DNA from: Tubulanus polymorphus
Taxonomy: Eukaryota > Animalia > Nemertea
Assembly (NCBI RefSeq): GCF_964204645.1
Contig: NC_134030.1
Coordinates: 17,050,110 to 17,114,109 of the forward strand
DNA: 64,000 nt
Direction: 5' to 3'
Shown here: positions 1-50,700 of the stretch, piece by piece
Layout: each line of letters begins with the position of its first letter
Position numbering within the stretch: position 1 is the stretch's first letter
The notes under the pieces: generated by a model
Databases searched by the model: none
Seen by the model: only the letters and a program-made list of their open reading frames with translations
Told to the model about the DNA's origin: nothing
Position numbers and translations under genes: made by a program

Positions 1-178
1 TAAATTCATTTATATCTTTATATTTAACTAAATTTTGTGGGATTATCTTATCTAATTTATCTTGTTTTACTTTACGCCATATATTTTCAGTAGAAGAATA
101 AGTAACCGAACTCTCAGGGTTGTAATATAAATTTCTTAAATATTGTTCTTTAGTATTAGGAGTTTTTTTACCACCCAT
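1..178 (-). CDS. Polinton retroviral-like integrase, N-terminus (truncated by window edge)
   Basis: Manual translation from ATG at 178: MGGKKTPNTKEQYLRNLYYNPESSVTYSSTENIWRKVKQDKLDKIIPQNLVKYKDINEF, open to the edge. Fits the Polinton integrase N-terminal pattern L..(I/L)YY(D/N)P..S(F/Y)S....(L/I)(Y/W)..VK. The catalytic core is not in the window. Confidence 0.7.
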   Translation of the reverse strand, partial: MGGKKTPNTKEQYLRNLYYNPESSVTYSSTENIWRKVKQDKLDKIIPQNLVKYKDINEF

Positions 179-208
179 TTATATATCCTTAATTTTAACT
201 TTATATTT

Positions 209-1456
209 CTAATATTGAATACTATCTAATTGTGAATTTACAATATTTAATTGTGCGTCAGATATAATATAAATGTGCATTTTAAAATTTTTGATTCCTT
301 TTTTCTTTTTCATGAATAATTGTATTCCATCTTTAGTGTTCTGTAGTTTTTTCCCACAACCATGTAATGAATTATCCTCTGTTGTTCTAAAATCTAACCA
401 TAATGCATATTTATTGCCGGTATAATAATCAATTTGATTAATATTACAATTTTCAAATGATTTTACTTTTTCATTCATAAAATGTTTTCTAATTTCTGGC
501 CATTGATCTATCATTCTCATTCCCTGACAAAATATTTTATTTGCTATTCCTTCGATAGTTATTTCTACTTTTGTTATTTCAGGATTATAATAATTATCAA
601 CCTTTATTGCGCCATTAGAATATGTTGCAATTGTAAAAAATATTAATATACCTTTAATAGATCTTCTTGGGAAGTTAATATTCTCATTAATCATTTCATC
701 ATTTGCATTAATAGTTACAGTTTTAAATTTATCAATATAATCATATAATGATGAAAATCCTTGATTGTATTGAGTTTGAATTGTGCTAGCAATATTTTCA
801 TTAGTAACTGTGTCATATTCTAAACATATATTCGATAATTTATAACCCATATCTTTAACAACGCTAGATAATACAATTTCATTAACAGGAGCAAATGTTA
901 TCTCAAATGTAATATCTTCTTGAATTGCGTATTTATATAAAGGTGCATTATTATTTATCAATTCAAAGTCTAATGGAATTTTATATTTGCTTCCATAAAT
1001 CTTTTTAATCAAATTATCTGTGGCACGAGTTACTATTGCGTCATTAGCTCCTGATCTTAATTTATTATGGTTTTCCGATTGAATACCCTGAAATATCATA
1101 TTATTTCTATTTTCTTTAGTTAACCATAAATCTTTATAATGCATAAATAAATTATAATCATCTAATGAGAAAACTGTTTCCGGACCAATCTTTATAGTTA
1201 ATTTTTTAATCAAATATCTTCCAACATTATCAACAACATAATTGTTATCATGGCCAGTTACTTTTATATCGGCTGATAAATAAATACTATTTGGAACATA
1301 AAAAGTATTTTGTGTTAATCTATGAATTCTAACATATAAAGTTTCACCAGGATTAATATTTGAAGGGTTATTAGTAATTATCTGATGTGATCTTTCTGCT
1401 TTAATAGCATTAGATATTCTAGAAATCTTAGAAGGACTTATATAACTCCCACTCAT
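209..1456 (-). CDS. Major capsid protein (double jelly-roll/hexon-like) of the Polinton
   Basis: 415 aa, beta-rich. The N-terminal KAERSHQIITNNPSNINPGETLYVRI and C-terminal ALWLDFRTTEDNSLHGCG..LQNTKDGIQL resemble invertebrate Polinton MCPs; size and position fit. Confidence 0.75.
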   Translation of the reverse strand: MSGSYISPSKISRISNAIKAERSHQIITNNPSNINPGETLYVRIHRLTQNTFYVPNSIYLSADIKVTGHDNNYVVDNVGRYLIKKLTIKIGPETVFSLDDYNLFMHYKDLWLTKENRNNMIFQGIQSENHNKLRSGANDAIVTRATDNLIKKIYGSKYKIPLDFELINNNAPLYKYAIQEDITFEITFAPVNEIVLSSVVKDMGYKLSNICLEYDTVTNENIASTIQTQYNQGFSSLYDYIDKFKTVTINANDEMINENINFPRRSIKGILIFFTIATYSNGAIKVDNYYNPEITKVEITIEGIANKIFCQGMRMIDQWPEIRKHFMNEKVKSFENCNINQIDYYTGNKYALWLDFRTTEDNSLHGCGKKLQNTKDGIQLFMKKKKGIKNFKMHIYIISDAQLNIVNSQLDSIQY

Positions 1457-1480
1457 TTATTAAACAAAAAAATTAATTGT

Positions 1481-2946
1481 TTATTTTTTATTATTTTTTT
1501 CTTGATATCTTTTTGATATCATATTCACTAACCCAAAAATAATAGCACTTACAACTGTAATTAAAAATAAAATAATATGTTCAGCAGCAAAGTTAAGAAT
1601 ATTCCCAGCAGATTTCAATATAAAACCAACAATTGATGCAATAATTCCTGGTAATGCTGCAGCAGATTTTTTAGATAGTTCCCATAAATATTTTGCTAAT
1701 TTCTTTAAACCATCCTTAACTTTATCTTGTATAGAATTATTATCATTCGGGGGTTTATCCGGTTTATTGGGAGTAGGAGTAGATTTCAAAGCATTTGATA
1801 TTGCTAAACCAATTGGTGTAAATAACATAGTTACAGCTGTTAGAATTGAAAGAATTGTTATTCCTTCTAATTTAAATAATAACTTTATTCTATCTTTCAG
1901 TGATATTTCAGAATTTGGTTTTATCAATAAATCTTTAAAAATAACTTTTAATCTATTTATATTATAATCATATGATTTTAATGATAATTTAATTTCTTCT
2001 TTTTGTACTTCTAAATTATCCTTTAAATTATTAATTTCTTTTTCTAAATATGCATTTCTTTTTTTAAATTCGATTTCTTCAATAACTTTATTATCTCTAT
2101 CTAATTTTAATTGTTCTATTTCTTTATTTTTATCAGTTAATTCTTTTTCCAAATACATAATTTTTTGATCTCTTATACTTTTATTATGCGCAATTTTATC
2201 AGATGCAAGTCTTATACTAATAATTTCTCTAATTGCTTTATCAGAAAATATATCTAAATCTTCTAATTCTTGATCTGTTGCATCAAGTAATCCATTCGGT
2301 AAAAGTTTTTCAATTGGAACTTTATTTGATTTAAGTTTACTATTTTTGGAAGTTATATTCTGTTCAGAAGTTGTTTCTGTTTCTGATTTCTTTTTGATTA
2401 TTTCAAATAATTCATTAATTCTTTGTTTAAATACGTCTATATTATCATCTATATTATCATTTCTTTTTGTGTAACATCAGTTATTTCATTACTATTACTT
2501 ATTATTTTAATTCTATCTGGTTTTAATTTTTCTAAAGTTGATTCTGATAATATTTTATTTTCATTATTTTTATAAGTGATATCAATATAATAATCACCTT
2601 TCAAACGATAATAACATTTACCATTATCTAAAAATTTTAATTGATCTGCTAAAAGTCCAACGTCTTCATCATTTATGTTAAGTTTAGATTTTTCAATTAA
2701 ATCTTCTAATTTAGGTATTTTGTTTAAATTATCTAAATCTTGTTTTACTAAATCTGGGTCTAAATTTTCAGGATTTAATTGTGATTCAGCATTTTTAATA
2801 TAATCAGGCATATTCAAATTATTATTGTATTCTGGCTCATTACCATCATTAAAACTTGTTTCATCAAAATCAGGTGGTTGTTCATCAGTTATGCCAGGTT
2901 CATCAAAATTATCAATTCCAATATCTTCTCCACCCTCTACATCCAT
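1481..2946 (-). pseudogene. Coiled-coil plus C-terminal multi-helix membrane protein, split by a frameshift near 2462-2468 (ORFs 2449-2946 and 1481-2158 are one gene)
   Basis: The frame of 1481-2158 stays open upstream to about 2461 (NDNIDDNIDVFKQRINELFE...RDQKI|MYLEK). Only the ATG at 2946 has the shared upstream motif. Hydrophobic helices GITILSILTAVTMLF and LPGIIASIVGFIL. Confidence 0.7.
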
Positions 2947-2962
2947 TTATATAATAAAAAAA

Positions 2963-3976
2963 TTAAAATTTAAAATATAATATTCCTCCGATTACAATTC
3001 CTATACAAGTTAAAGCTAATTTAGTATTTTCATGGGATTTATTATCATTATCAGTTTTAATTATATCATGTTGAATATTATCAGTTTTAATATTTTCTGT
3101 AGTATTGTAATCTTTTATTTTGGAATCATTATCCAATTTAATATTCTTAGTTTTAGTTTCTGTTGATTGAATATGTTTTTTATTTTTTTCACCTTCCATT
3201 AATTTTGGAGCAGTAATTATCTTTTTATTTATATCATTCAATCCAAATGAATTATTTATTGTTGCAGTTTTAATTAGATTATTATAACCAATTATGTTTC
3301 CCATCTTTAATACTAAATCATTAGAAATAATTAATAGATTAGGGCCTATACAATAATTTAATCTAATATGTGATTTATCTAAATAATTTTGATATCTTAC
3401 AATGTTTTCTGGAATCGATCTATTTTTATCATTATGTATGGAATCTTCAAATAATACTTTGAATTGTTTCTGCGTATCAAATGATGTATTTAAATTTCCA
3501 ATTATTGGGGATCTTGTTTCAACTTGTGCACCTAGAATACATATCAAATAAGTTCTAATAGATTGATTTATTCTTTGTATACCTGATTTTGTAAAACCTT
3601 CATTATTTTCTAAAATGAAATAAACCCAACCATTATTGTTTTCTTGTTTTAAATTATCATAAAATGTCGGTAATTTATTGAAATTTAATGTTTCTAAATC
3701 CTTAGTTTCTATTTTACCATAACCTAATTTATTACTATAGATATTATACAAACTATTAGATGGTATGGGAAGTGTTGCTAGAAATGTTATTAAGGAACTA
3801 ATTGTAACCGAACCACTTATAATCAAATAATATATAATTTTACTTTTTAGATATTTTTTCTTTTTTATCTTTAAGTCACTTTCAAATTCTAATATTTGTT
3901 TTTCTAAATATATTTTTAATTTAGTTTTATTTATATCATGAGGAATAATATCAATATTATCAACTTTATCTTCCAT
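2963..3976 (-). CDS. Polinton hypothetical protein with N-proximal and C-terminal transmembrane segments
   Basis: 337-aa ORF with the shared upstream motif; hydrophobic IIYYLIISGSVTISSLITFLA and C-terminal LALTCIGIVIGGILYF. Confidence 0.7.
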   Translation of the reverse strand: MEDKVDNIDIIPHDINKTKLKIYLEKQILEFESDLKIKKKKYLKSKIIYYLIISGSVTISSLITFLATLPIPSNSLYNIYSNKLGYGKIETKDLETLNFNKLPTFYDNLKQENNNGWVYFILENNEGFTKSGIQRINQSIRTYLICILGAQVETRSPIIGNLNTSFDTQKQFKVLFEDSIHNDKNRSIPENIVRYQNYLDKSHIRLNYCIGPNLLIISNDLVLKMGNIIGYNNLIKTATINNSFGLNDINKKIITAPKLMEGEKNKKHIQSTETKTKNIKLDNDSKIKDYNTTENIKTDNIQHDIIKTDNDNKSHENTKLALTCIGIVIGGILYFKF

Positions 3977-3995
3977 TTATTTAGCAAAAAAATTA

Positions 3996-4418
3996 CTAAT
4001 TAGTAAACTTATAAGCAACAAATATAACAATAACAGTTCCGCCTAAAATCCAAATTATCTTATATTTCTTCTGTTCATTACTTGGGGTATAATAATCTGA
4101 TAATTTAGGTTTGTATAGATGTAATTTTTCTTTATTTGTTACCGCGTTATATAAACTCATTGCATCATCGACTGATTGAAAATCTCTATGTGAAATCTTC
4201 TGATCATATAATTCTTTATTGATATAATCCATATAGTTTTGTCTCTTTTCTCTATATTCTTCTGCAGCTTTATTATATTTCTCTAACGCTAAGTTATGTC
4301 TTCTTTGTTCTCCTAATGAACTATTTTTATCAATATGTTTAAATAAATAACCACCACCAGTAAATGCTAAAGCGTTAACAATTGCTGATCCTATAATAGT
4401 TATAATTGCAGAAGCCAT
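3996..4418 (-). CDS. Polinton small membrane-anchored coiled-coil protein
   Basis: 140 aa; hydrophobic N- and C-termini around a charged helix (EQRRHNLALEKY); shared upstream motif. Confidence 0.75.
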   Translation of the reverse strand: MASAIITIIGSAIVNALAFTGGGYLFKHIDKNSSLGEQRRHNLALEKYNKAAEEYREKRQNYMDYINKELYDQKISHRDFQSVDDAMSLYNAVTNKEKLHLYKPKLSDYYTPSNEQKKYKIIWILGGTVIVIFVAYKFTN

Positions 4419-4443
4419 TTATTTAGCAAAAAAAATTACGCAT

Positions 4444-4665
4444 TTATATGGGAGGAATATATTTTTGTTTTTCCAAATAATCAATAGTTAAATTAGATAA
4501 AGTAACTGCTAATGTTAATTTTAAAATATCATTTATATCAAATCTATCAACATTAACACTTCCCATTTTGAATACTTTTTTTAATACCATTGAATAACCA
4601 ACAGTTCCAACTGATAGTAAGGCGCCATTATATAATCCAGTTATTATCCACTTATTATCACTCAT
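4444..4665 (-). CDS. Polinton small hydrophobic protein
   Basis: 73 aa with two hydrophobic helices; the ATG directly follows the TAA of the upstream gene (TAAATG). Confidence 0.7.
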   Translation of the reverse strand: MSDNKWIITGLYNGALLSVGTVGYSMVLKKVFKMGSVNVDRFDINDILKLTLAVTLSNLTIDYLEKQKYIPPI

Positions 4666-5022
4666 TTATTTATCAAAAGAATTACTATCATCAAAATATT
4701 TAGTTATCTTATTTATGATTAATTCAACATTTATTTCATTACTAGTTTCATTTGTATATATTTCAATTATTATTTTTTTAATATCATCTACAATAAAACC
4801 TTCATCTAATTCATAAAATCTTAAAGATTCTCCAATTAAATTAGTAATCTTTTCTACATTTAAAGTTTCTTTATCTATTGTTGTTTTATACTCAAATGTT
4901 GTTTCATTAGAAAATTCAATATTTTTGATATGTGTAATTACATCATTAATGTTAAATTTCATTTCTTTCTCACATTTAAAATCAAATCCAAAACATATAC
5001 TCGGTCCAACAGTTATATTCAT
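4666..5022 (-). CDS. Polinton hypothetical acidic protein
   Basis: 118-aa ORF, tightly packed, with the shared upstream motif. Confidence 0.6.
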   Translation of the reverse strand: MNITVGPSICFGFDFKCEKEMKFNINDVITHIKNIEFSNETTFEYKTTIDKETLNVEKITNLIGESLRFYELDEGFIVDDIKKIIIEIYTNETSNEINVELIINKITKYFDDSNSFDK

Positions 5023-5038
5023 TTATATAATGAAAAAA

Positions 5039-5797
5039 TTACTCTTTACATCTTATAACTAATTCATAAATTACAGGAAAGTTATTCAAATCAATTAAAT
5101 ATCCATTATGATTTCTTATTTCTAATTTAAAATTATTGAAATGTGGAATACAAGGTTTGAAATCACATTCATATAAATTATAATTTATTTGAGTTCCAAA
5201 TTGTTTGACATTTTTTAATGGTAAAATATTTAATAAACCAGAATTACAAATTGTATCTTTAGTTGCTTCAAATGTTTTTGTTGGGTCAATCAAATTGCAA
5301 TAAATATAAAAATGTGTAAAAGGTATTAAGTTTGATCTACCTTCTGCGTATGCTGTAACAATATCTGGGTTAATTCCTAACAGTTTACCTAAAGGTTTTC
5401 TTACTGTAAATTTAAATTGTTCGTCATTAGCTAACCTAATCTTTATTTTATTAGAACTATCACTTTTTAAAATTCTAATACTAAATCCGGAATCACTTCC
5501 TAATTTAGCTCGAGCTTTTCTATTAATTTCTTGTGCTAATGTATCTAAATTATATAATCCTGGTTTTAAATATAAAAAAAACCATTTATTCCTTTTTTTG
5601 TAAAAGATTGAAAAAATTAAATGTTCTAGACTTTTATCCGATACATTATAAAAAGAATTACATCAACTTATATTTACTAATTTTAAATCAACACAATTCT
5701 TAAATTCTCTATCTAATTGAACTATTAAATTACGAGATTTATAATTTGTAAGTTTTCTAGAATCAACAAATATTCTGTATTCTTTTAATTCTACCAT
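5039..5797 (-). pseudogene. Minor capsid (penton, single jelly-roll)-like gene with a premature TGA at 5663-5665
   Basis: Manual translation from ATG 5797 is in frame with ORF 5039-5293: MVELKEYRIFVDSR...VNIS*CNSFYNV...LKPGLYNLDTL...LGKLLGI...FYIYCNLID...FKLEIRNHNGYLIDLNNFPVIYELVIR. These are penton-like motifs; about 252 codons with a single stop. Confidence 0.75.
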
Positions 5798-5865
5798 TAT
5801 TTATAACATAAAAAAATTACCGCTCATCACTAAAAATTAATTTTAATAAAATTTTTCCTTAATAA

Positions 5866-7182
5866 ATGGATGAGAAGATAGCATGCAAAATTTGTGGTGA
5901 ACTTCTAAGAAAAAGTAATATGGCTCGACATATGAAAAAACATGATGAAAATTATAAACCCCCTAAACTAAACTGTCCAAAATGTAATAAATTATTCTCA
6001 AGAAATTATGTTAAAAAACATTCAGAGAAGTGTAGAATTAATGGCGCAACGGCTAATGTTGATAGTAATGACTGTAATAGTAATTCTGCCGAAGTTGAAC
6101 CTGAAGTTATTTGGAAAAGACCTTTCTTATTCTATGATAAGGATAATATAAAAGATCATTTCTGTGAGCCTTGTCGAATAAAATATAGCCCTGAAAATAT
6201 AGAAGATTGGGAGAATCATCAATTTCGTAAAGTACATATAGATAAAATTTCTAATAAATTTGAAACTGAATTCAATGAAAGAAAAAATAATTTATTAGAA
6301 AAAATAAAATATGAGAAAACGTTACCAGATAATAAAGAAACAGTTGAAAAGTTAGAAAAACAATATAATGAATTAACAAGAAAATCATATTATTGTAAAT
6401 ATTGTAAATTGATTATTACAACAAGTAATTCAAATCTACATAATAGAACAATAAAACATAAAGAAAACGTAAGAAAATACCAAGAGCTTAATGAAGATCT
6501 ATTACCAATAAATTATAAACGAAAATGTCCACAATGTAGTTATGCGACCTTAAGACAAGAAGGTACTGTGTTATTTTGTAATGAATGTGGATGGCAAAAG
6601 AATTTATTGGGTGAAGAAAAAACTAGAAATTTTCTCTTAGATCCAAAATTAAATTATCTTGATGAAATTTTTAAAATATTTTCTATAGAAGATCATACAC
6701 CAGAATATATGCAATGGCTTGAAAAAATGAAAATAATAGAAAATGAAAATGGTGAAATAACTAAAAAAGATATTATAAAAACAATTATTCCATCAACATT
6801 TAACACAAAACAAAAGAAAATGTATTTATATTTATTATTTAACGATTATTATGAAAAACCTAAATTAACAGAAGAAGATATGAAAAATATAAAAAAAATA
6901 TTCAAACAAATATTAATGTATCATTTGGAAAATAGAATAACAGATTCAATAAATTATGAATTCTTTTTAAATAAGATTGTAAATTATTTAAACATAGATA
7001 TTATAATTCCATTTGATGAATTAACAAACAAAAAGAAACAAAGAGAGCGAGATGAAATGTGGAACAAGGTAGAACTTTATTTAAATGAGAAAAATGAAAT
7101 GGAGGAAGAACCTAAACAATTAAATGAAAATGAAGAAGCCAATAGTGATTTAGATTATGATGATATTGATTTTATGTTTTAA
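5866..7182 (+). CDS. Multi-zinc-finger protein with a C-terminal VLTF3-like (NCLDV late transcription factor 3) domain
   Basis: C2H2-type fingers (CKICG..HMKKH, CPKC..H..C, CEPC..H..H, CKYC..H..H), a C4 ribbon CPQC-x13-CNECG, then PKLTEE..KKIFKQI..NYEFFLNKIVNYL..KKQRERDEMWNKV, which resembles the VLTF3 C-terminal consensus. Confidence 0.7.
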   Translation: MDEKIACKICGELLRKSNMARHMKKHDENYKPPKLNCPKCNKLFSRNYVKKHSEKCRINGATANVDSNDCNSNSAEVEPEVIWKRPFLFYDKDNIKDHFCEPCRIKYSPENIEDWENHQFRKVHIDKISNKFETEFNERKNNLLEKIKYEKTLPDNKETVEKLEKQYNELTRKSYYCKYCKLIITTSNSNLHNRTIKHKENVRKYQELNEDLLPINYKRKCPQCSYATLRQEGTVLFCNECGWQKNLLGEEKTRNFLLDPKLNYLDEIFKIFSIEDHTPEYMQWLEKMKIIENENGEITKKDIIKTIIPSTFNTKQKKMYLYLLFNDYYEKPKLTEEDMKNIKKIFKQILMYHLENRITDSINYEFFLNKIVNYLNIDIIIPFDELTNKKKQRERDEMWNKVELYLNEKNEMEEEPKQLNENEEANSDLDYDDIDFMF

Positions 7183-10100
7183 TGACCATAAGGTAATGTT
7201 TTTATACCATCATCTAAAATATGCCTTTTATCATCAAATGGATTTAAACTAGTTTTTTCAACTTCATTAATGTACATCTCATGATCTTCTGATCTTAAAC
7301 AATTCATTTTATGTTTCATTACAATTGATTTATATAAACACTTTATATAATCTTGAAATTCTATAAATTCTACAACCACATGTTTTGTTATTCCTTTTAA
7401 CTTTTTAGCTTCGTGATCTTTTGTTCTGTAACTATACATTTTACTTCTTATCCCAACAAATTCAATCATTTCATCACCCCCTAATTCATCTTTAAATTTA
7501 CCAGGAATCTTTTTATTATCATTGCTAAATAGTTCATGATCTTTGGGATAATTGCTAAAATCAAAATGATGTTTTAATGTTTTTAAGTCTTTTGTTATGT
7601 CATTTGTCTTGATTTTTAGTATGTAACTGTCGGTATTTTTTTGGATTAATGGGAACCCAGAATTGAATGTTCCATCATCTGTTGATAAATCATAAACATA
7701 ATCTGTTGGGTTATATATTTCAAATAAATCTTTAACTTCTTCTGTTAATTCTTTTTCTACATGCCTTAAATTAAAACAATTTGGTTTAGATTTAATTAAT
7801 TCTATATTCATATTAAATCCTAATGAACTGCATAATATATTTAATCCTGATATAGCAACTTTTCCTTTCTGTGCAAATGTTATCTTTTTATCCTTTGTAA
7901 ATTTTTTAGTGCCATCTGCGGCATAGAATCCAATGAAGAACCACTTTCTTAAATTATTTTTTGCATTTAATACATAATCTGGTACTATCTTTTCTTTTGT
8001 TGAAGTATTACTTTTCACTATTGCATGAATATAGAATTCATCATTATATTTTATAGCAAAATCTTTAGGATTATTCACATGTATTCTATAACATTGCGAT
8101 GATTTCATAACATCTATGATTTTGAATGTTTTATGTGAATAAACTTCTTCACAGAATTTCTTAATTCTTTCTAATAATTTTAAGTCTTGATTGCATAAAT
8201 ACCAACAATATTTTTTACCCCAAACATAATTATACACACCTGCTGAACCATCACCCAGGAAAAATCCTTTGATAAAATATTCTTTTTCTTCTAATGTTTC
8301 GGGTTCTATATTATAAATATTATCAATTATTTCATCAAATGACATATGATTCATTCTTTGGAAAAATCTTTTATGTAATAATTCATCTCCAATTTTTATA
8401 CCAGTTGGTTTTATTTCATCACCATTTCGTTTAATTAAATTATGATCTTCTGTAACATCTACAAATCCTAATTTAGTTCTAACTCTATAGATTTTCTTAT
8501 TTGTTTTATGTCTAATAATATTCTTTAATTTTTTCCATCCATTTCTTGTCCAAACATCCATTAATCCATTTATTTGTATTAATTCTTTTTCACCATATGA
8601 AATATAACATTCATTTTGTTTTGGAATTATTTCTGAAATTCTTCTTATCAATATTTTATCATTACATTTTAATAATATTGGGGTGTCAGCTGTTACAGAA
8701 TCAAAATATAATATTTCAATATGCTTTTCCCCAAAAAGTGGTTGTAAAACATTATAATAAAAATCATACATTAATAATTTTGATACTTCTAAAACAGTCG
8801 AACCAATAAATATAGGTTTATTAAATTTCATTAACGTTCTTTTTAATTTAACTGCTGTTAAATAATCTTCAAATCTTTTATTTCCTAAATGTCTAGGACT
8901 TGATTGTAAATGTCTTAATCGTTCAGAATTATTTACTAATTCAATATCATTTCTATTTCTAATATTTTCGCATGTTTTACCATAAAAACTATTATTCATT
9001 AATTTGAAGAAATCTTTTTCAAAATCTGTTTTTGATATTGTTCTCTGTTGAGTATTGAAATCTATATATTTTTCTAACCACTTCGATTGATTAAATTCAA
9101 TATATCTATGTACTTTCTTTAATTTCATTCCTTGTTTTAGATAAAATTTTAACATTCTATAATGAACAATATAATTGTATTTATTATTTTGAGTAAGTAT
9201 TAATTTTTCTGTAAAAACATGATCTTTCGGTTTTATTTTCTTCTGGTATTCACTTAAATAACTATCATCTACAGTTAAATGTTCTGGGCAATAAGGTAAG
9301 TTTCTTGTTTTAAACTTTATATTTTCAGGATATTCTAAATCAACTACAAAGAAATAACCAATTGGTGCTTCATCTTTTAAACTCGCAATTGCGCTTTCCC
9401 AATCAGTTTTGTTATCATTTTCAACTTCTGTTAATATAAAATTTTTATATGGTTGAGGTTGCATCATTGCCCAACCATATAAATTATTGGCGTCAATATA
9501 TAATAATTTATATTCATCATTTGCTTTAAAATACCTATCTCCCATAACACCACTAATTCCACCTCTAATTGATTTTTCAAATAATAAAACCATATCTGGT
9601 TCTTTTAATAAATCTAATTCTACATTTGTATATTTGAAACCACATTGCCGGGTTAAACGAGGACTAGAGTAGCAATAACAAGGATCAACATTAAAATGAT
9701 TCAAATTAACTTCTCTAAATTTTTCAAATATGTCAGCCAATATCATAACATCTGATTTTAAATATAAATCAACTAATTCGCCATGATTTTTCATCTTAAA
9801 ATGGTTCCAAATATTTAATGTTCTATTAAACACTTCGTCTTTCACATACTCCTCTTTTAATTGATCATAAAATTGATCTTTTAATAATTCTGTTACATTA
9901 AAATCATCATGTGTTTTGTAAAATGAATAAGGAATTGCACCTTTATATCTCAATAATTTAAAATCTTGTTCATTTGGATAATAATATCGAGTTATAACAA
10001 AATCATTATCAACTAAACTTTTTGATAAATTATCTAATGAACTTGCTAGAAATCTATAAGAATCTAAAAATCTAATGCAACCAAATTGAAATGAAATATA

Positions 10101-12239
10101 ATTTTCAGATGTTTTAGCTAATAGTTTAAAATCATATTTTCTTACATTTGCTTCATTCATAGCATTATATTCTTCTATTTCTTGATTAATTGCGCCCAAT
10201 TTTCCCGATAATTGTTTTATAAATAGATGGGTATCATATCCTGATAAATTATGAAATAATATTGGTACGAAATTTACTTTTTTAGCTTGTAAATTGCAAT
10301 CTTCATGAGCAGCTCCACGATATTTTGAATTCAAATGATCATGATCTCTAACTTTTTTATCAAATGAATAAAAACGTTTTTCACAATAACAACAATGAGT
10401 TGCATAATTAAAATCAATTTCATCTTCTTTTGTCATAACTATTCTTTTATTTTTGTTTAATAATTTTGCAAAATCACTTTCTAATTCAATCATTTTGTCA
10501 CAAAAATCATTAACTACATTTTCACCTCTAAAAGAAATATATTGACTTTCATATAATTCAGGATAATTTGATTTTATATAAATTCCATAAGCAGCAGCTC
10601 TTTGATGAACTTTTTTAATTGTATTTATAATTGGTGGGTCTTGAATTGTGTCTTCATTTAATTCATTTCCTTTATCCATTGATTTTAATAATTGCTTTTT
10701 GTTATATATTTCTTTTCTATCTTGATCAGTTAATTCTTTATTCAACGATTCAAAATCCCCATAAATTACAAATGGAACAATATTTTTAAATTTATGATCA
10801 GTAAATTTCAATTTATAATCTTTTTCTGTTGGCATTATTAATTTACAAAAATCTTTATTATCACATAATTCTTTATGTTTTAGTAACGCATTCTCAGTTC
10901 TAAATTTAGATAAACATTTTCTACATAGATAAATTTTATGGCTGTTAAAATCACTTTCTGTTCTAAAGAATAAATCAATTTGTTTTAACCACATATGATG
11001 TTCATTTTCATCTTTTTTGTAATATAACAAATCTATAGCATTTTCATCATCATAATATTCTGTTAAATATAAAGCTTCCAATGTATAATCTTTAATATTT
11101 TCACCTTTTGTCTTTGGTAATTGCATTAATTCGAATACATTTATTTTTAACTTATTAATTTTTTCTATTTTGGGTATCATTTTTATAGTTACTGGATATT
11201 GATCAATTTTATATAATGTTTCATATTTCCGATAATCTGTTATTCTACAAACATTTTCCTGTGTTGGATGTAAGCAACTAATAATTGACCATAGAAAACA
11301 TTTATTATCTTCATTTTGAATATTTATTACTGCTTTTGTCGTAAATGGTAATTTAATATAAGATGATGCTTTAATATCCTTTTCTGTTGTAAAGTTTGAA
11401 TCATTTTTAAACATTGTTTTACTTTTTGATGTTTTATTTCTTTTTGTATTGTAAACATTTAAATCTAAATATATAATTTCATTCAATGTTAAGCCAGAAC
11501 CCTCAAAATATCTTTCTTCAATATGACGTTTAAATCCATTAAATATTTTTTCTAACTTCTCTTTTATTTGTGTTTTTGAAATTATTTCTTCAGAGTGTGT
11601 TTGAATATTATAATTCATTTTTTCTTCTGACTTTATAAAACTTACTTTCCCAGAGATACTAATTTTTGGATATTCAACATCTGTTATCAAATCTAGTATT
11701 TTTTCTACTATTTCATTAAATTTACTATAATCTTCTATTGTTGTACCTTTAAAGAATCTAAATATAATAGCCGCAGGACCAATTTTACTATGTAATGTTT
11801 CTAAAATTTCAATTGTATCTTTTATTTCTAGTGAATCAATATAATTTCTAACATTTTCCGTGTAAGGTTTATTTGAAATGGATTTAGTTTTTGAAGTTGG
11901 TTTTTTTACTTTTTGAGGTTTATCATCGAAATAATCTTTTCCTAAAACATTATTACTCAAATTTTGATGGTGTTTTTGTGATTCGAGATGTCTGTTATAA
12001 TTCCTTTTTACTATAAATTCATTACAAACTTCACATTTTATTATATCCACATTCATATTTTCTAATCGTTCTTTTCTTTCATTGGAATTTTCTGGAGTTT
12101 CAAAATCTATTACATTTTTTATATGATTTGAAGACTTTTCATGACGCGATTTTTGAGATTTATCAATGTATTTTTTACAATATGGACAATGATATTGATT
12201 TTCATTAACATCAATTTGTTCTGTCTTATTCTCTTCCAT
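7179..12239 (-). CDS. polB: Protein-primed family B DNA polymerase (pPolB) precursor with intein; about 1331 aa after splicing
   Basis: ExoI VIYGDFES, ExoII FHNLSGYD, ExoIII YLKSDV, motif A YIDANNLYGWAM, motif B KLMNNSFYGK, motif C YFD|TDS split by the intein, and C-terminal GKFKDE/SKMY/KGI/FDDKR typical of Polinton pPolB. Confidence 0.96.
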   Translation of the reverse strand: MEENKTEQIDVNENQYHCPYCKKYIDKSQKSRHEKSSNHIKNVIDFETPENSNERKERLENMNVDIIKCEVCNEFIVKRNYNRHLESQKHHQNLSNNVLGKDYFDDKPQKVKKPTSKTKSISNKPYTENVRNYIDSLEIKDTIEILETLHSKIGPAAIIFRFFKGTTIEDYSKFNEIVEKILDLITDVEYPKISISGKVSFIKSEEKMNYNIQTHSEEIISKTQIKEKLEKIFNGFKRHIEERYFEGSGLTLNEIIYLDLNVYNTKRNKTSKSKTMFKNDSNFTTEKDIKASSYIKLPFTTKAVINIQNEDNKCFLWSIISCLHPTQENVCRITDYRKYETLYKIDQYPVTIKMIPKIEKINKLKINVFELMQLPKTKGENIKDYTLEALYLTEYYDDENAIDLLYYKKDENEHHMWLKQIDLFFRTESDFNSHKIYLCRKCLSKFRTENALLKHKELCDNKDFCKLIMPTEKDYKLKFTDHKFKNIVPFVIYGDFESLNKELTDQDRKEIYNKKQLLKSMDKGNELNEDTIQDPPIINTIKKVHQRAAAYGIYIKSNYPELYESQYISFRGENVVNDFCDKMIELESDFAKLLNKNKRIVMTKEDEIDFNYATHCCYCEKRFYSFDKKVRDHDHLNSKYRGAAHEDCNLQAKKVNFVPILFHNLSGYDTHLFIKQLSGKLGAINQEIEEYNAMNEANVRKYDFKLLAKTSENYISFQFGCIRFLDSYRFLASSLDNLSKSLVDNDFVITRYYYPNEQDFKLLRYKGAIPYSFYKTHDDFNVTELLKDQFYDQLKEEYVKDEVFNRTLNIWNHFKMKNHGELVDLYLKSDVMILADIFEKFREVNLNHFNVDPCYCYSSPRLTRQCGFKYTNVELDLLKEPDMVLLFEKSIRGGISGVMGDRYFKANDEYKLLYIDANNLYGWAMMQPQPYKNFILTEVENDNKTDWESAIASLKDEAPIGYFFVVDLEYPENIKFKTRNLPYCPEHLTVDDSYLSEYQKKIKPKDHVFTEKLILTQNNKYNYIVHYRMLKFYLKQGMKLKKVHRYIEFNQSKWLEKYIDFNTQQRTISKTDFEKDFFKLMNNSFYGKTCENIRNRNDIELVNNSERLRHLQSSPRHLGNKRFEDYLTAVKLKRTLMKFNKPIFIGSTVLEVSKLLMYDFYYNVLQPLFGEKHIEILYFDSVTADTPILLKCNDKILIRRISEIIPKQNECYISYGEKELIQINGLMDVWTRNGWKKLKNIIRHKTNKKIYRVRTKLGFVDVTEDHNLIKRNGDEIKPTGIKIGDELLHKRFFQRMNHMSFDEIIDNIYNIEPETLEEKEYFIKGFFLGDGSAGVYNYVWGKKYCWYLCNQDLKLLERIKKFCEEVYSHKTFKIIDVMKSSQCYRIHVNNPKDFAIKYNDEFYIHAIVKSNTSTKEKIVPDYVLNAKNNLRKWFFIGFYAADGTKKFTKDKKITFAQKGKVAISGLNILCSSLGFNMNIELIKSKPNCFNLRHVEKELTEEVKDLFEIYNPTDYVYDLSTDDGTFNSGFPLIQKNTDSYILKIKTNDITKDLKTLKHHFDFSNYPKDHELFSNDNKKIPGKFKDELGGDEMIEFVGIRSKMYSYRTKDHEAKKLKGITKHVVVEFIEFQDYIKCLYKSIVMKHKMNCLRSEDHEMYINEVEKTSLNPFDDKRHILDDGIKTLPYGH
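7635..8699 (-). mobile_element. Intein (355 aa) with LAGLIDADG homing endonuclease, inserted at the PolB motif C (pol-c) site
   Basis: Starts Ser (YFD/SVTADTP), block B VDVTEDH, LAGLIDADG motifs FIKGFFLGDGS and FFIGFYAADGT, block F YVYDLST, ends KN followed by +1 Thr (TDS). Removal restores YFDTDS. Confidence 0.95.
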
Positions 12240-12262
12240 TTATAAGGAAAAAAAATTACTTG
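12240..12262 (-). promoter_or_regulatory. Representative copy of the shared viral upstream motif TAATTTTTT-N(3-7)-ATAAATG
   Basis: Minus strand reads agtaatttttttttccttataaATG before polB. Near-identical context precedes the ATGs at 1456, 2946, 3976, 4418, 5022 and 5797. Confidence 0.7.
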
Positions 12263-12561
12263 TGGTGATGAGTGGGGATTACTTCCCCCTGTATATAACA
12301 AGCGCGCTATTAACCGTTCTCACCCAAGCCTCACAGCATCTATTTATCCGGGTACAGTTGACACGCAATCACTGTACTACTACAGTAATAGCACAGTACA
12401 GAGACTCACTGTATCGATCTATCCACGCGCAGTTGTTGTTACGCGCACTCACTGTATATGTGTGTCACAGAGCAATCGTCCGTTCTCACTAGAGCCTAGC
12501 TGTGATGAGTGGTGTCTCGACCTCTCGACCTCTGATCTGAAAACGCCATCTTCTAATTACT
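12263..12561. repeat. Probable Polinton terminal inverted repeat (partner copy outside the window)
   Basis: Non-coding and more GC-rich than the element body, with short internal repeats (actcactgtat x2, ctcgacct x2). Ends ...ttctaattact at 12561. Confidence 0.55.
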
Positions 12562-12859
12562 TTCGGCTAGTGACCTCTTCATGGCCAAAAATTATACAGA
12601 ACAGAAAGTAGTTACTTCCGAAAGATTTTTCTCTGGAATCGTGCCGGAAATTTCCGGAGGATTTTTTTCCGAAGTATTTCTGGCCGGAGGTCAGATTTCA
12701 GGAGGATTCTTTTCTGGAAGATATCTGGCTGGGGTGATGGGGTGGGCAGAATCCCGGAGGATGTCTTTCCGGAAATTTCCGGATGGTTAGTTGTTAGAAG
12801 TGTTAGGGTTTAGGGGTTAGGGTTTCGATTATAAGGTTTTAAATGCGTTAGGTTTTAGA

Positions 12860-37063: not shown

Positions 37064-39660
37064 CTAAGATATCTTCGAAACCTCCGCGACTTTGATCCAT
37101 ACAAAGAAAAATCTAAATATACGACCTCCAAAGGCTCCGATGTAACGATAGGAATCAATCGCTTGTTGGGTAGGGGTACTTGCATCAAACACTATAGCAA
37201 TCTCTGACTGGGGAACTACGACTTTCAACGACTCAACGCCATCCTCAAAGACCGTCCGACACAGAAAGCAATCACTTAAACAAAGCGAATCCGCAAAACG
37301 TTGCCACTTTCGATCCAAATGAGAAAACAGACGATATCGCCCCGTTCTAGTAATCTGTCCAATATTTCTACTCGGATCAGAGTCTAACTCTTGCGCGGCG
37401 ACCATACACCTCCGGCCAACTCCCAAGGCTTCAAAATCCTGTTAGGGATTAACAGACGGAAGAGGAAATGCAAAAACAGACTGACAAACGGCATGGACGT
37501 CATCGAGGATACACACTTACGACTCAAGGCATCAGCATCCACGTTGGATTTGCCGGAAATATACTCTAAAGTTAAATCGCAAATGGCTAAACACTGTAAC
37601 CAGCGATGGCTGGTCGCATCCTGTAAGGTTAACGGATTCGAGTCCGTTTTGACACACATACATTACCGTACAAGTAGTCATTAAGGGCCTCAGACAATGA
37701 CCACTTGAGAGCCAGAAATTCCAACTTGTGGACCGGATAATTTCTCTCGATGGTTTAAGGCCGTGGAGCTATGAGTCGTAATTTTCTTTCCTGAGCAGGC
37801 CCCTAACCCACCCAGACTCGCATCGGTATGTAGTTCGAAAGGTAAGGAATAATCAACATACGCCAAAACTGGCGGTTCAGATGATAACTCCTTCAATTGA
37901 TCAAAAGTGGACTGCTGAGCCTCGGATTCCCCTTCAAAAGTTCGTTTAGTGGCTTCGCTATTTTGGCAAAACCCTTTATAAACCGCCGGTAGTAAGAAGC
38001 GAATCCCATGAAACTCAGAACTTCACTTACGGATGTGGGGGTTTTCCACGCTCTAATGGTTTTAGTCTTTTCAGGGTCAGGCTCGATACCCGCCTCGGAA
38101 ACTACGCGGCCAAGGTGAAGAACTTTCTCCTGGAAGAACGAACATTTCGACAGTTTTAAGTTTCAGGCCAGCATTTTTCAGCTTCTGGAAAACATTGTCT
38201 AACGGCACTAGATGTTCAATCGAGGCCGAAAATACGATGATGTCATCGATATAAACGAGACACTCTTTCAACGAAAGATCACCGAGGCTTCGCTCCATTA
38301 AGCGTTGGAATGTAGCCGGAGCGCCGGTAAGTCCAAAAGGCATTACCTCACACTCATAAAATCGGAAACCTGGGCCAACGTTGAAAGCAGTGTATTGCTT
38401 ATTCTCCTCGTCCATCTGAACTTGCCAATAGCTGGATTTTAGATCCAGGCAAGAAAAATATCGGGAACCATAGAGGGCGTAAAGTTGCTCGTCAATGCGA
38501 GGCAAACAATAGCGTTCTGGGATAGTACGTTTATTTAATTCCTGGTAGTGGATACAAAATGGCAGCTCACCGGTCTTCTTTCTGACTAAAACTACCGGTG
38601 ACGCAAATGCGCTGGATGACGCTTTTATAACCCCAACCTCGAGCATCATACGGAGATGGTCCCTAACCTCATCCACCATACCAGGCGGAATTCTACGATA
38701 CCGCTGATTTATCAGAGTGGTATCCGTGAGATTAATCTTATGCTCATTTAGATGAGTGTGTCCAAGGTCAAAATCACTAATTGAGAAAATAGACTGCCTT
38801 GCCCACAAGAGATTCATAAGCCTCTCCCTGGCTTCGTCCACAATCGTGGACCAGATCCATACGATCCTCTAAACTGATTTTGTCCAGCTGGCCGGGGAGT
38901 GGGAACCCAATTCCGATAGACAGGTCTTTCCGCAACCTGTTTCACGGTTTTGGAAAGCTTTTCAATTTCAGCCGAAACTTTGCAAAAGCCTCCTCCCATC
39001 CCGGGGAACCCGAACCTGGAGGTTGAGGCCTCTGAACTGGAGCCTGAACTGAAGCGATGGTTTTCCTTCCAGAAACGACGTTACCGGACTCCTGTTCACA
39101 TTCAGCCTTCCGCGCTTCCTTGACCACGTCATTATATGAAGCTTTTGTCTGAAAAAGATGGTTCTCTTCCAAAGAATAAACCTCACCGGATATCAAAGAG
39201 AACTTATCCAAGACCTGATCCATATCGGCATCTTCTCCAGCATTAAACAGAACCCCCACTGCACCCCCGCACAAAGACCTTCTCATTACCATGCGAATTT
39301 GCGTCATTATATGAAGCTTTTGTCTGAAAAAGATATCGGTTACAGCCGCCAGGCAAACACCTAATCTTCCCCATGAGGTTATCGAGATGGCAAGACCACT
39401 GACTAATGGTTTCCATTGCCTACTGCATCGAAACATAAAACTGCCGGAGACTCTCTTCCTAAGAATAAACCTCACCTGATATCAAAGAGAACTTATCCAA
39501 GACCTGATCCATATCGGCATCTTCTCCAGCATTAAACAGAACCCCCACTGCGCCCCAACGCAAAGACCTTCTCATTGCCATGAGAATTTGCGACCTGGAA
39601 TAGTTGGGATCCTTCTGGAGTGCCCTAACTTCAATTTTCCACTGCTGGAAGGTTGATTCA
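37064..39660 (-). mobile_element. Decayed Ty3/Gypsy retrotransposon internal region (PNMA-like gag, RT, RNase H)
   Basis: RT motifs FASPVVLVRKK, LDLKSSYWQ, MPFGLTGAPATFQR, YIDD (38077-38841); RNase H ELHTDAS and GKSNVDADALSR; many frameshifts; internal duplication in gag (about 39130-39600). No LTRs seen. Confidence 0.9.
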
Positions 39661-47717: not shown

Positions 47718-50700
47718 CAGACCTGCCAACCTTGTGTCTGACTAAATCAGAACAATTTCATAAATTATCAGTAATTTTTGAAGTTTTTCAGTAACCAGCA
47801 TGCAATACTAAAACACTGTTATACTATATAAATCATTTTATTAATCAACGAAAAAAAAATTGTGATTGTCAGAACAATTAATACTGTAATAATTGATTCC
47901 CGGCAAATAAAAACAACTGAGACAAAACCGCTGCAAATTGATTAGCAAATACATCTTTTGAAAATTATCATATAAATTGTTCAACTTTCACGGACAATTG
48001 AACATTAATAAGCATAATACGATTATCGTTTCGATAAAGCTGCCGCTGTAGCCTTCTTAGCTTTCTCTAATTATTTCACGCTTGGATCATACTCATGACA
48101 AACAATGCCTTGAGCTTTCATGATGAGCAAACTTTCCAATGTCTTTTGTCCTAATGACGCTCTGAAGTCATTTCGATTCTTCCTGACGATACTAAAAATT
48201 CTCTCGCACTGCGCATTGGAAAATTCTCTCGCACTGCGCATTTGAAACTGGTATCAACAACACTTGAAGCATCACCCTGCTTTAAATAGTAAACCTGCAG
48301 AGAAAATATAATTTGGTGGATAAATTTATATTCTATACAACCAAGTTTCTCTACCCACTGTTTATGGATTATAGTTTTACTGTACACCTACATAAAACAT
48401 GTAGGCTTATAATCTAATAACACAGAAATAATTTTACGAGTAAACCCACCTCGTTGAACCAGTGAAGTCTTTCATTGTAGAAATAATCTTCCACTGTTCT
48501 TCAGCAGGCCGTTCTGTAGCACCGGCTGGTGAAGCCACAAAGAAATCATTAGGCAATTCTGCATCCATGACTGTCTGGTAGTCTAAGAACTCCATTTCCA
48601 GTAAATCCCGCTTATCATCTTCAAGCATGCAGGGGAATCTGTCAATGAAGTATTTCATGTCAAAGTACTGAACTTCACCCCTGAGCTTCACATCTGCCAC
48701 CTGGAAAGAGGAAAAGGGTCCATCTAATCACTTTGCAGTCATGATGCCTTATACAATGTATACTGACTGCACGGTTTTTTGATTTACAATTATAAAAGAA
48801 TATTTCCTCCCTGATATACTGCATTTAAATACCTTTGCATGTAGCCAAAGAGGCTCCTTAGCAGGATTGAATTTTTTCACCATGTAGTCACACGCCGCTT
48901 GGTAAAATGCCACAACATTTTTAAAAAACAACTTCTCTGTATCAGCGTTCACTGCATCTAAATATTTCCGAGTGTCATCTCCAATGGAAAGCTGGGCCTT
49001 ATCTTTTATGTTGTATCTAGATTTGAAATCTGCTTCCATTATGTGACCATGCATAGTAACTTGGGGCTTCACAAAACAAATAAGAATTGATTTAAACAGC
49101 CTTACAATAACCCTGTATATCTTGTGGATTTAACTCGCATCTGGCTGCAGGTATTCACCTGCGACTTCAAAGACCTGCAATTAAGAAAATGAATATTGTG
49201 CCCATTAAGTACCTCTAAGTTATTTCTGGGTTTCTATTTTGTGCTGTACTTTTAGCCAGACTGACCACCAGGCCAGGCAATTTTAATGTGTCTTTTAAAG
49301 TGCATGAATAATCAATCCTTTAATTAAACTTACTGAAATAGCCTTGCAGAGGAATGCACTGTACACCTTTGCTGTGCGCCGCTTTAAGAAGGAATACAAC
49401 TGAGTCTTTATTGATGCGGCAAAGAGTGGTATATCATCATCATTACCATCCCATTCTTCGGCATACCGATCATCATCACCATCATCGATTTCACATTCGG
49501 CAGCGAAAAACAGTTTCAAAGCTTACCACTGTTCAAGGAGGCGCTTTAATGCAGGTCCCATACTAAGCCATCGGGTGGCCACATGCTTCTGCATTTCATG
49601 TTCTGGTAAATCGCATGACTTTTGGAAAGCAACAAATCGTTGGTGTCTTCGTACCAGTGAAACAGACGGAGGATTTTTGTCGAAATCAAAGACATCCTGA
49701 AAAAAAAGAATAATCAACACTCCCTTAAGTTGACGATAAAATATAATTCTATGAAAAGTTACCAAACTTAGGCTTACCTTTATTGTGTTGATTGCTTTTT
49801 TGGTAGCCAGGTGTATGAGACGGTTGACACATCCTGCAAGGTGGACTTGGTTGTTTTTCTCTCTCACAAATTTTATAACACCTTTATGCTGTTCTGTCAT
49901 AACGCTACAATTATCAGACACCAATGACAACAGCCATGACCAATCAATATCTTTTTTTCCCAATTCCTGAGCTTTTACATTATATACAGCCTCTCCCGTA
50001 TGACTTTCATTCCAGATAGGATTACAGAGTAGTCTTGAACAAGTATTGAGGTTATTATCGATGTATCGCACTACAATGGGATAATACGTATCCGTTTTGA
50101 CAGTAGACCCATCAACTCCAAGGACAAATGGTTGATTACGCAAAAAGTTAGTGTTTGTATCTGAAATATCATCTGCTATGGCATTTGCAATATGGGTGGT
50201 TTTTTAGTTCTACCACAAGCGTACTTTTCAGCAGCAGGATGACCTGGGAACATCTTTCTAAACAAATCTCCGGCATGATCAGCAGCTGCAAGTGCAATGT
50301 TGTGTTCAACTAGAAATGTTGTAAATAGCGTCTCAGCCCGGATAGCGTCTAAGTCAAGACCAGACGATGCTGGAGTGAAAAAAACGACTTATCTTACCTG
50401 TTTGGTTCAAGTCCAGTATAGCGTGGAATAGTTCCCCGCTCAATGATACATTTTTAGAAAAGGAGTAATTCGGCTGCGTACTTTTCAAGACAAACCGACA
50501 TACCGACGAACCGACGAACCGACATACTCGTATTCCCTCGATCCAGCCACGGGTAATCCACGGAAAAACCCTGTCCCTCGATCCTAGCCACATTATATAA
50601 GGGTAATCCACAGAACCACGCAGCCCCTCGATCGCCACATTATATAAGGGTAATCCACGCAACCACGCAGCCCCTCGATCCCAGCCACTTTATATAAGGG

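Follow-up and report, generated by a model that had tools for sequence, protein, structure and literature searches.

Mavirus reportedly shares promoters with a large helper virus. Together with the Polinton-like virus (PLV) Gezel-14T, it belongs to the integrated small DNA viruses that are thought to use the late transcription of a larger virus, and in both cases the hosts are protists, the helpers are of the mimivirus type and the dependence is known by experiment. Here we describe a comparable integrated element in an animal, the nemertean Tubulanus polymorphus, where it occupies the beginning of a 64,000-nucleotide stretch (NCBI RefSeq assembly GCF_964204645.1, contig NC_134030.1, positions 17,050,110 to 17,114,109 of the forward strand; hereafter the window). 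This element, an integrated multi-copy Polinton, differs from mavirus and Gezel-14T in having a late factor of its own, known from sequence. On balance, a poxvirus-type virus infecting the same cells probably supplies the RNA polymerase that transcribes it, which would make it a poxvirus satellite.

Polintons, or Mavericks (adintoviruses), have in common with the window element a protein-primed family B polymerase (pPolB) and integration, and probably also a capsid module, an integrase and terminal repeats (PMC8502044). VLTF3 has already been recorded in polintoviruses, where a subgroup from corals carries it as the window element does (PMC11131425), and in some PLV clusters (10.64898/2026.06.19.733378); the available text of a 2016 paper that was checked as a cited source (PMC5499653) contains no VLTF passage. 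PLVs packaged with entomopoxviruses are also known: AHEV_PLV1/2 and CBEV_PLV1 are Polinton-type elements proposed as poxvirus parasites, found in insect occlusion bodies and either lacking an integrase or using a tyrosine recombinase (Barth et al. 2024, PMC11296320). The accessible part of that paper reports no promoter analysis, VLTF3 or intein for them, and in its supplement TAAATG was matched twice, both times in repeat tables, with no gene-start sequences that could serve as a positive control. The window element, in contrast, offers regulatory evidence and many integrated copies, and no helper is known for it, none having been searched for. What sets it apart from the Polintons in the published material available to us is the combination of a pox-type VLTF3 with pox-late motifs at all gene starts, plus an intein in polymerase motif C. 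Thus VLTF3 in Polintons and poxvirus-associated PLVs were already known, and the pox-type starts at all genes and the polymerase intein are, as far as these sources go, new. No account of pox-type promoters in Polintons, or of a true intein in a Polinton polymerase, came up in our literature searches, with subscription papers and bioRxiv supplements outside their reach; PMC11071308 mentions endonuclease inserts that it attributes to invasions by inteins, and its available text holds nothing further on inteins.

The GC content is 23% from the window start to position 12561, against 31-47% across the remaining window. This block contains ten genes: the beginning of a probable integrase gene, a probable capsid gene, a gene broken by a frameshift, a penton-like gene with an internal stop, a plus-strand gene for a 438-aa protein, the gene of a 1686-aa pPolB and four others that are small or unassigned (Table 1). 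The identity of the polymerase as a pPolB, as expected for a Polinton, follows from its similarity to the pPolBs of 22 IMG/VR loci (29-38% identity over the best segment; one further locus at 24%) and from a core identity of 59% to P0001, which bears PF03175; Pfam returned no direct PF03175 match for the window polymerase. A relative, L001, is 76% identical. In raw reads of organism A (12% sample), the depth over the element is ~100-980 with a likeness of mostly 85-99%, and 535 reads run past 12561 into unlike flanks, supporting a right end there. The diverse flanks behind 12561 and the high depth are those of integrated, dispersed copies with a defined end, and we infer that the window holds one damaged copy of a dispersed family with perhaps tens to hundreds of copies.

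In vaccinia, the consensus for late promoters places TAAAT(G) across the start codon and a T, amid further T residues, at -10 (PMC11980589). The preliminary description of this locus had noted ATAAATG on nearly all genes of the element, and this was borne out by a count in which the frameshifted gene was taken once and the integrase start at 178 was included (n=10): TAAAT is found at 10/10 starts and ATAAATG at 9/10, the tenth having its ATG one base after TAAAT. The motif is larger than had been noted, since a T-run precedes it at fixed spacing, giving (T)AATTTTTTT-N6-TAAATG. This strict pattern occurs six times in the 64-kb window, every time at a gene start, with 0.03 occurrences expected. 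When the starts are aligned on TAAAT, A at -15, T at -10 and A at -1 are each present in all ten and the exact TAAATG in nine. T at -10 is found at 65 of the 197 other TAAAT sites of the element, and at least five T in the interval -13 to -7 at 9/10 starts compared with 15/197 other sites (Fisher p 8e-9). By sequence, therefore, the element has the poxvirus late layout of TAAAT(G) over the start codon and T at -10 within a T-run, and initiation inside TAAAT with poly(A) leaders is predicted by analogy.

The same sequences could also be read as mere AT-rich translation-start context or as stop-start coupling, given that the element has 23% GC, that AAAATG-like starts are common in related loci and that one gene pair is joined as TAA-ATG. 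We regard this as extremely unlikely, because the spacing is anchored on TAAAT even when the ATG is displaced, because equally AT-rich relatives are without the motif (L012 2/9, L027 1/14), and because no gene lies upstream of either the VLTF3 gene or the polymerase gene to which it could be coupled. The penton-like gene is informative here, as it keeps the distance between T-run and TAAAT despite its displaced ATG, so that a promoter fits better than a translation context. Among relatives, the motif is found at 2/2 starts of L001, and L008 has TAAATG at 4/5; TAAATG is present at 23/282 open reading frame starts in 28 other Polinton-like loci, seven of them from L019, and with a T-run at 3/282, while in giant-virus loci TAAATG is found at 54/444 starts.

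Within the motif, the integrase and VLTF3 starts (176-197 and 5847-5868) have an A-richer variant, TAAAATT at -16 to -10, where the other eight have TAATT. Since A2L belongs to the intermediate genes of vaccinia (PMC11980589), the two variants may correspond to two temporal classes. A further repeated sequence, CC(A/G)CTCATCAC, is found at 5820-5830, just upstream of the VLTF3-like gene's start motif, at 12264-12274, just upstream of that of the polymerase, and again in the terminal region at 12501-12511. Copies of CC(A/G)CTCATCAC bound a 237-nt stretch that is absent from many element copies, and the sequence could be a second regulatory site. Two other patterns were considered and set aside: a reading of the motif as a trans-splice acceptor was rejected, as there is no AG before the ATG, and TTTTTNT, the early terminator of poxviruses, was less frequent than expected in coding strands (9 vs 15 expected, p 0.016, one of five patterns), an effect too weak to be used.

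The layout resembles poxvirus late transcription (A2L/VLTF3, TAAATG; PMC11980589) in the initiator over the ATG, the T at -10 and the A2-type factor. It differs from it in that the factor is fused to extra zinc fingers, that A1, G8 and RNA polymerase are lacking in the visible part, and that the late-type motif stands on replication genes too. A Pfam scan of the window proteins revealed no RNA polymerase gene in the visible 12.5 kb, in agreement with the preliminary description, and no VLTF2 or TBP in the visible part of the element. The left part outside the window, or else a partner element, might instead carry the gene of a pox-like RNA polymerase, which would make the element self-sufficient and cytoplasmic, like yeast pGKL. 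The pGKL elements are capsid-less and non-integrating. They are alike in being linear elements with pox-like TAAAN initiators, and unlike the window element they have their own RNA polymerase, which is pox-related, and an upstream ATNTGA box (PMC6211774). Self-sufficiency of this kind is very unlikely for the window element: the bulk of a normal Polinton is already present in its visible 12.5 kb, and its left part, judging from family knowledge, must still fit integrase, ATPase and protease.

The second line of evidence is the 438-aa protein of the plus-strand gene. The claim that it is VLTF3-like was upheld by phmmer, hhalign, Foldseek and ESM Atlas although Pfam was silent: Pox_VLTF3 (PF04947) was found by Pfam neither in the window protein nor in P0134, P0135 and P0136, and it was absent from 5/5 Polinton records examined, out of 22. 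A word-based homolog search with the VLTF3 region also retrieved nothing among 844 candidates. A phmmer search of 1.84 billion proteins gave four matches, of which two have the layout of zinc fingers plus domain (one being the L001 protein), one is unplaced and one, P0137, is a true Pox_VLTF3; it is the sole known-family match of the four, and its named relatives are entomopoxvirus VLTF-3 proteins. The profile match that failed with Pfam was obtained with hhalign (96.8% to pox VLTF3) and with a profile of three Polinton-type proteins alone, which scored 33-46 bits to five entomopox-type VLTF3s and -9 to 22 to six giant-virus VLTF3s. In the reverse test, the window protein scored 32.8 bits on the entomopox profile (1000 shuffles reached at most 4.7) and -4.5 on the giant-virus profile. 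The structure model (predicted local distance difference test, pLDDT, 82) has cowpox and two entomopoxvirus VLTF3s among its top four Foldseek matches (E 2.4e-6 for the cowpox protein) and many VLTF3s of giant viruses at lower ranks, and ESM Atlas gave VLTF3 at 0.96 for the window protein; against the PDB, Foldseek found no match at E<=0.001. In the alignment, the C4 zinc ribbon and the helical domain with its conserved L, F, Y and W are kept. Membership of the VLTF3 family is thus secure, and the protein is a predicted late transcription activator. From these comparisons, a poxvirus affinity is favoured over a giant-virus one, unproven as it is.

As the promoter motif and VLTF3 both point to Poxviridae, a poxvirus-type helper is likely, with the intein as a separate history. 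The preliminary description had proposed transcription by a helper virus, which remains the best reading and is sharpened to a poxvirus-type helper by promoter and VLTF3; the intein, which had been counted with them, has no vote on the helper. The jamming of late transcription and the inducible antiviral role that were proposed along with it are speculative. The steps beyond the motif and the VLTF3 gene are conjecture and would run as follows. After infection, TAAAT would be the site at which the polymerase of the helper begins transcription, and that polymerase would supply the non-templated poly(A) leader required by starts of this kind. The VLTF3 of the element, with its extra zinc fingers, would replace the helper factor or compete with it, biasing late transcription to the promoters of the element, which would then copy itself via its own pPolB, package itself and integrate.

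Several points weigh against a poxvirus satellite. hhalign parts the VLTF3 groups poorly (96.8% pox vs 95.8% giant virus), the Polinton VLTF3s stand beside and not within the entomopox clade in an unrooted tree with long branches, and a common AT-rich composition may inflate the entomopox match. The alignment behind the folded model included one entomopox-like sequence, and the Atlas lists PLV and mriyavirus VLTF3 clusters at 0.94-0.95, where our comparison set consisted of pox and giant-virus VLTF3s. The start motif has its own complication in L019, a 9-kb IMG/VR contig that codes for an A32 ATPase and for an rve-chromo integrase whose N-terminal part is protease-like; it is a distant Polinton with 38% polymerase core identity, outside the clade of the window polymerase in the tree. 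L019 has TAAATG at 7/7 starts, but T at -10 at only 2/7 and no VLTF3 in its 9 kb, and is possibly a second origin of pox-like starts. Finally, an integrated nuclear copy must reach the cytoplasmic factory, and the polymerase and integrase too lie behind late-type starts, leaving the first reactivation step without explanation.

VLTF3 alone does not imply a helper, because viruses without RNA polymerase keep it and polintoviruses have it. The mriyaviruses, RNA-polymerase-less viruses with VLTF2/3 and presumed nuclear replication (PMC11253617), illustrate how the window element might be an autonomous nuclear element, with VLTF3 as a private factor that recruits host RNA polymerase II to the matching motif in the absence of any helper. 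Integration and intein homing do require nuclear access, and the extra zinc fingers could contact DNA directly. With the motif over the start codon, however, transcripts would have no 5' leader except where slippage of a pox-type polymerase supplies it, and slippage of this kind at TAAAT is described in PMC6211774. The motif moreover fits the pox late layout including T at -10, and the VLTF2 or TBP partners are lacking in the visible part, so that we consider a private nuclear factor, although it is the strongest competitor of the satellite, rather unlikely.

With respect to the favoured satellite, the two broken genes of the window copy and the likeness of just 85-99% in most sister-copy reads could also indicate a relic, whose lineage evolved as a poxvirus satellite and whose present copies are decaying or transposing, the helper being gone or rare. 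The window copy nevertheless has open frames for VLTF3 and for the 5-kb polymerase, and relatives at ~50-76% protein identity retain the motif, implying selection until fairly recently; a relic is therefore unlikely. A stronger version of the satellite can be put forward only tentatively: an endogenous poxvirus virophage that captured a late factor from a poxvirus, rewired all its starts after poxvirus late promoters and diverts helper transcription by means of its VLTF3 with the extra zinc fingers, that records an unsampled poxvirus and possibly acts as an inherited defence, and whose intein is still homing.

The polymerase is interrupted at motif C by an intein, and its description as a motif-C intein proved correct: it is inserted as LYFD/SVTADTP...IQKN/TDS (slashes mark its ends), that is, at the pol-c site between D and TDS, with a nucleophile at its start, Asn at its end and Thr at +1. 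Its last residue but one is Lys, which many relatives also have. Intein_splicing (E 1.7e-7) and LAGLIDADG_3 (E 2e-4) were both under Pfam's cut-offs, and TIGR01445 was over its cut-off. In L001, the site is empty (YFD/TDS), a precise intein-free allele. In the reads of organism A, 84 skip a net 1065 nt at the intein and the depth across it drops from ~490 to 210; about half of the sister copies are without the intein. Filled and empty alleles therefore coexist, which is the condition for homing, and splicing and homing activity are predicted.

The giant-virus pol-c inteins (PMC5784728) share with it the insertion point, the Ser start, the Asn-Thr end and the LAGLIDADG region; according to this 2018 survey, in the part available, nuclear inteins are found mainly in fungi and viral ones in four large-virus families, Poxviridae not among them. 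The window intein differs in forming its own clade in protein-primed polymerases and in having a multi-copy chromosomal carrier with filled and empty alleles. A search returned 237 proteins, and among the best 120, which were examined, five are pPolBs and nearly all others delta-like family B polymerases. Of 97 extracted inteins, 69 went into a quick IQ-TREE analysis, in which all six from pPolBs (that of the window and five others) form one clade with a support of 99, among inteins of large-virus-type polymerases. A relation to alleles of nucleocytoplasmic large DNA viruses, which the preliminary description had put at stake, was thus found, the nearest viral contigs being giant-virus bins (41% identity) and the best giant-virus intein being 45% identical, within an arrangement where the pPolB inteins have their own clade. 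That clade rests on the tree, because raw identity does not separate the best giant-virus intein from two of the five other pPolB inteins (43-45%). Within the clade of the window polymerase, intein and extein identities run in parallel (64/59, 53/49, 45/48 and 43/49%), so the intein is old there. P0003, a different and barely alignable type of pPolB, carries an intein of the same clade (48% identity), which suggests that the intein jumped once to an unrelated pPolB lineage. We also observed that P0101 and P0115, type II topoisomerase-like proteins (PF00204/PF00521), have inteins related to the family of the window PolB intein. Two intein-bearing PolBs labelled PF08408 were rejected as poxviral, their match to Pol delta being far better than to poxvirus polymerases.

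The idea that the three signatures reflect one helper therefore fails, as the intein lies in its own pPolB clade, with giant-virus and not poxvirus outgroups, and is absent from L001 and from about half of the copies. Nor do intein, VLTF3 and motif consistently co-occur in relatives, since L001 has VLTF3 and the motif without the intein. On its phylogeny, the intein points to past giant-virus contact and is silent on the present helper; it would be a selfish passenger with a history of its own, which entered long ago from the PolB of a giant virus and was then inherited inside the pPolB clade.

The remaining genes and features are less sharply defined (Table 1). The integrase resemblance covers the 59 N-terminal codons that lie in the window and was judged by eye; its counterpart in L019 carries a Pfam rve match. 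The 415-aa capsid candidate matches Pfam Capsid_N weakly (E 0.0095) and a profile of the proteins of major capsid protein size from related loci at E 0.015, and its single-sequence structure model was unusable (pLDDT 33). The penton-like protein matches the penton-sized proteins of L010, L011 and L016 at 89% in hhalign, a weak match to proteins identified by size. Neither the capsid protein nor the alignments of VLTF3 and of the 140-aa protein retrieved any locus from IMG/VR. In the frameshifted gene, the start motif is present at the upstream frame only. A joint of 12264 to 12502 in 444 reads represents the deletion of the 237-nt stretch in the terminal region. On the host side, the repeats at 12614-12787 are GC-rich and include a perfectly inverted pair of 15 nt, with TTAGGG-like fragments near 12800; they probably represent a small transposon of the host into which, or next to which, the element inserted. 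Further along the flank, decayed long terminal repeat retrotransposon pol (RVT_1, RNase H) and hAT-type transposase pieces are found at 37064-39481, 48749-50203 and 57559-59629.

Table 1. Features of the Polinton and its gene starts, in window coordinates.
Feature	Position	Strand	Basis or remark
Right-hand part of integrated multi-copy Polinton/Maverick	1..12561	.	23% GC block, read depth, diverse junctions at 12561; left part outside the window
5' end of probable rve integrase gene, starts at ATAAATG	1..178	-	Frame MGGKK...LRNLYYNP resembles L019 integrase start, by eye
Integrase start motif, A-rich variant with short T-run	176..197	-	
Probable major capsid protein, 415 aa	209..1456	-	Weak profile matches
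Late-promoter-like motif TAATTTTTTT-N6-TAAATG, capsid gene	1454..1475	-	
One probable coiled-coil/membrane gene, frameshift near 2450 giving 165-aa and 225-aa frames	1481..2946	-	Three-frame view
Late-promoter-like motif	2944..2965	-	
337-aa protein with hydrophobic segments	2963..3976	-	5' part conserved in L008
Late-promoter-like motif	3974..3995	-	
140-aa conserved Polinton protein	3996..4418	-	72% to L008, 38% to L002
Late-promoter-like motif	4416..4438	-	
73-aa conserved Polinton protein	4444..4665	-	78% to L008, 43% to L002
Late-promoter-like motif, one T-run mismatch, overlaps upstream stop	4663..4684	-	
118-aa protein	4666..5022	-	N-terminus conserved in L008
Late-promoter-like motif	5020..5041	-	
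Probable minor capsid (penton) gene	5042..5797	-	In-frame stop at codon 46 in window copy
Penton-like gene motif, TAAAT normally spaced from T-run, ATG displaced (TAAATAATG)	5795..5819	-	
VLTF3-like gene start motif, A-rich variant TAAAATTTTT	5847..5868	+	Conserved in L001
VLTF3-like protein, 438 aa	5866..7182	+	C4 zinc ribbon plus helical VLTF3 domain (~6493-7110) behind several N-terminal zinc fingers
Protein-primed polymerase, 1686 aa, interrupted by intein	7179..12239	-	Similarity to pPolBs
Motif-C (pol-c) intein with LAGLIDADG endonuclease region, 355 aa	7635..8699	-	In some copies, not others
Late-promoter-like motif of polymerase gene	12237..12258	-	
GC-richer terminal region, probably right terminal inverted repeat	12259..12561	.	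237-nt stretch gone from many copies

It is not settled by what means Polintons of animals are transcribed or whether they require larger viruses, and to this debate the element contributes a short testable promoter and a likely helper family. The coexistence of filled and empty intein alleles in a multi-copy chromosomal element would let homing be studied within one genome. If the poxvirus satellite is true, virophage biology would be extended to poxviruses with regulatory evidence, and an unsampled poxvirus would be predicted in the host.
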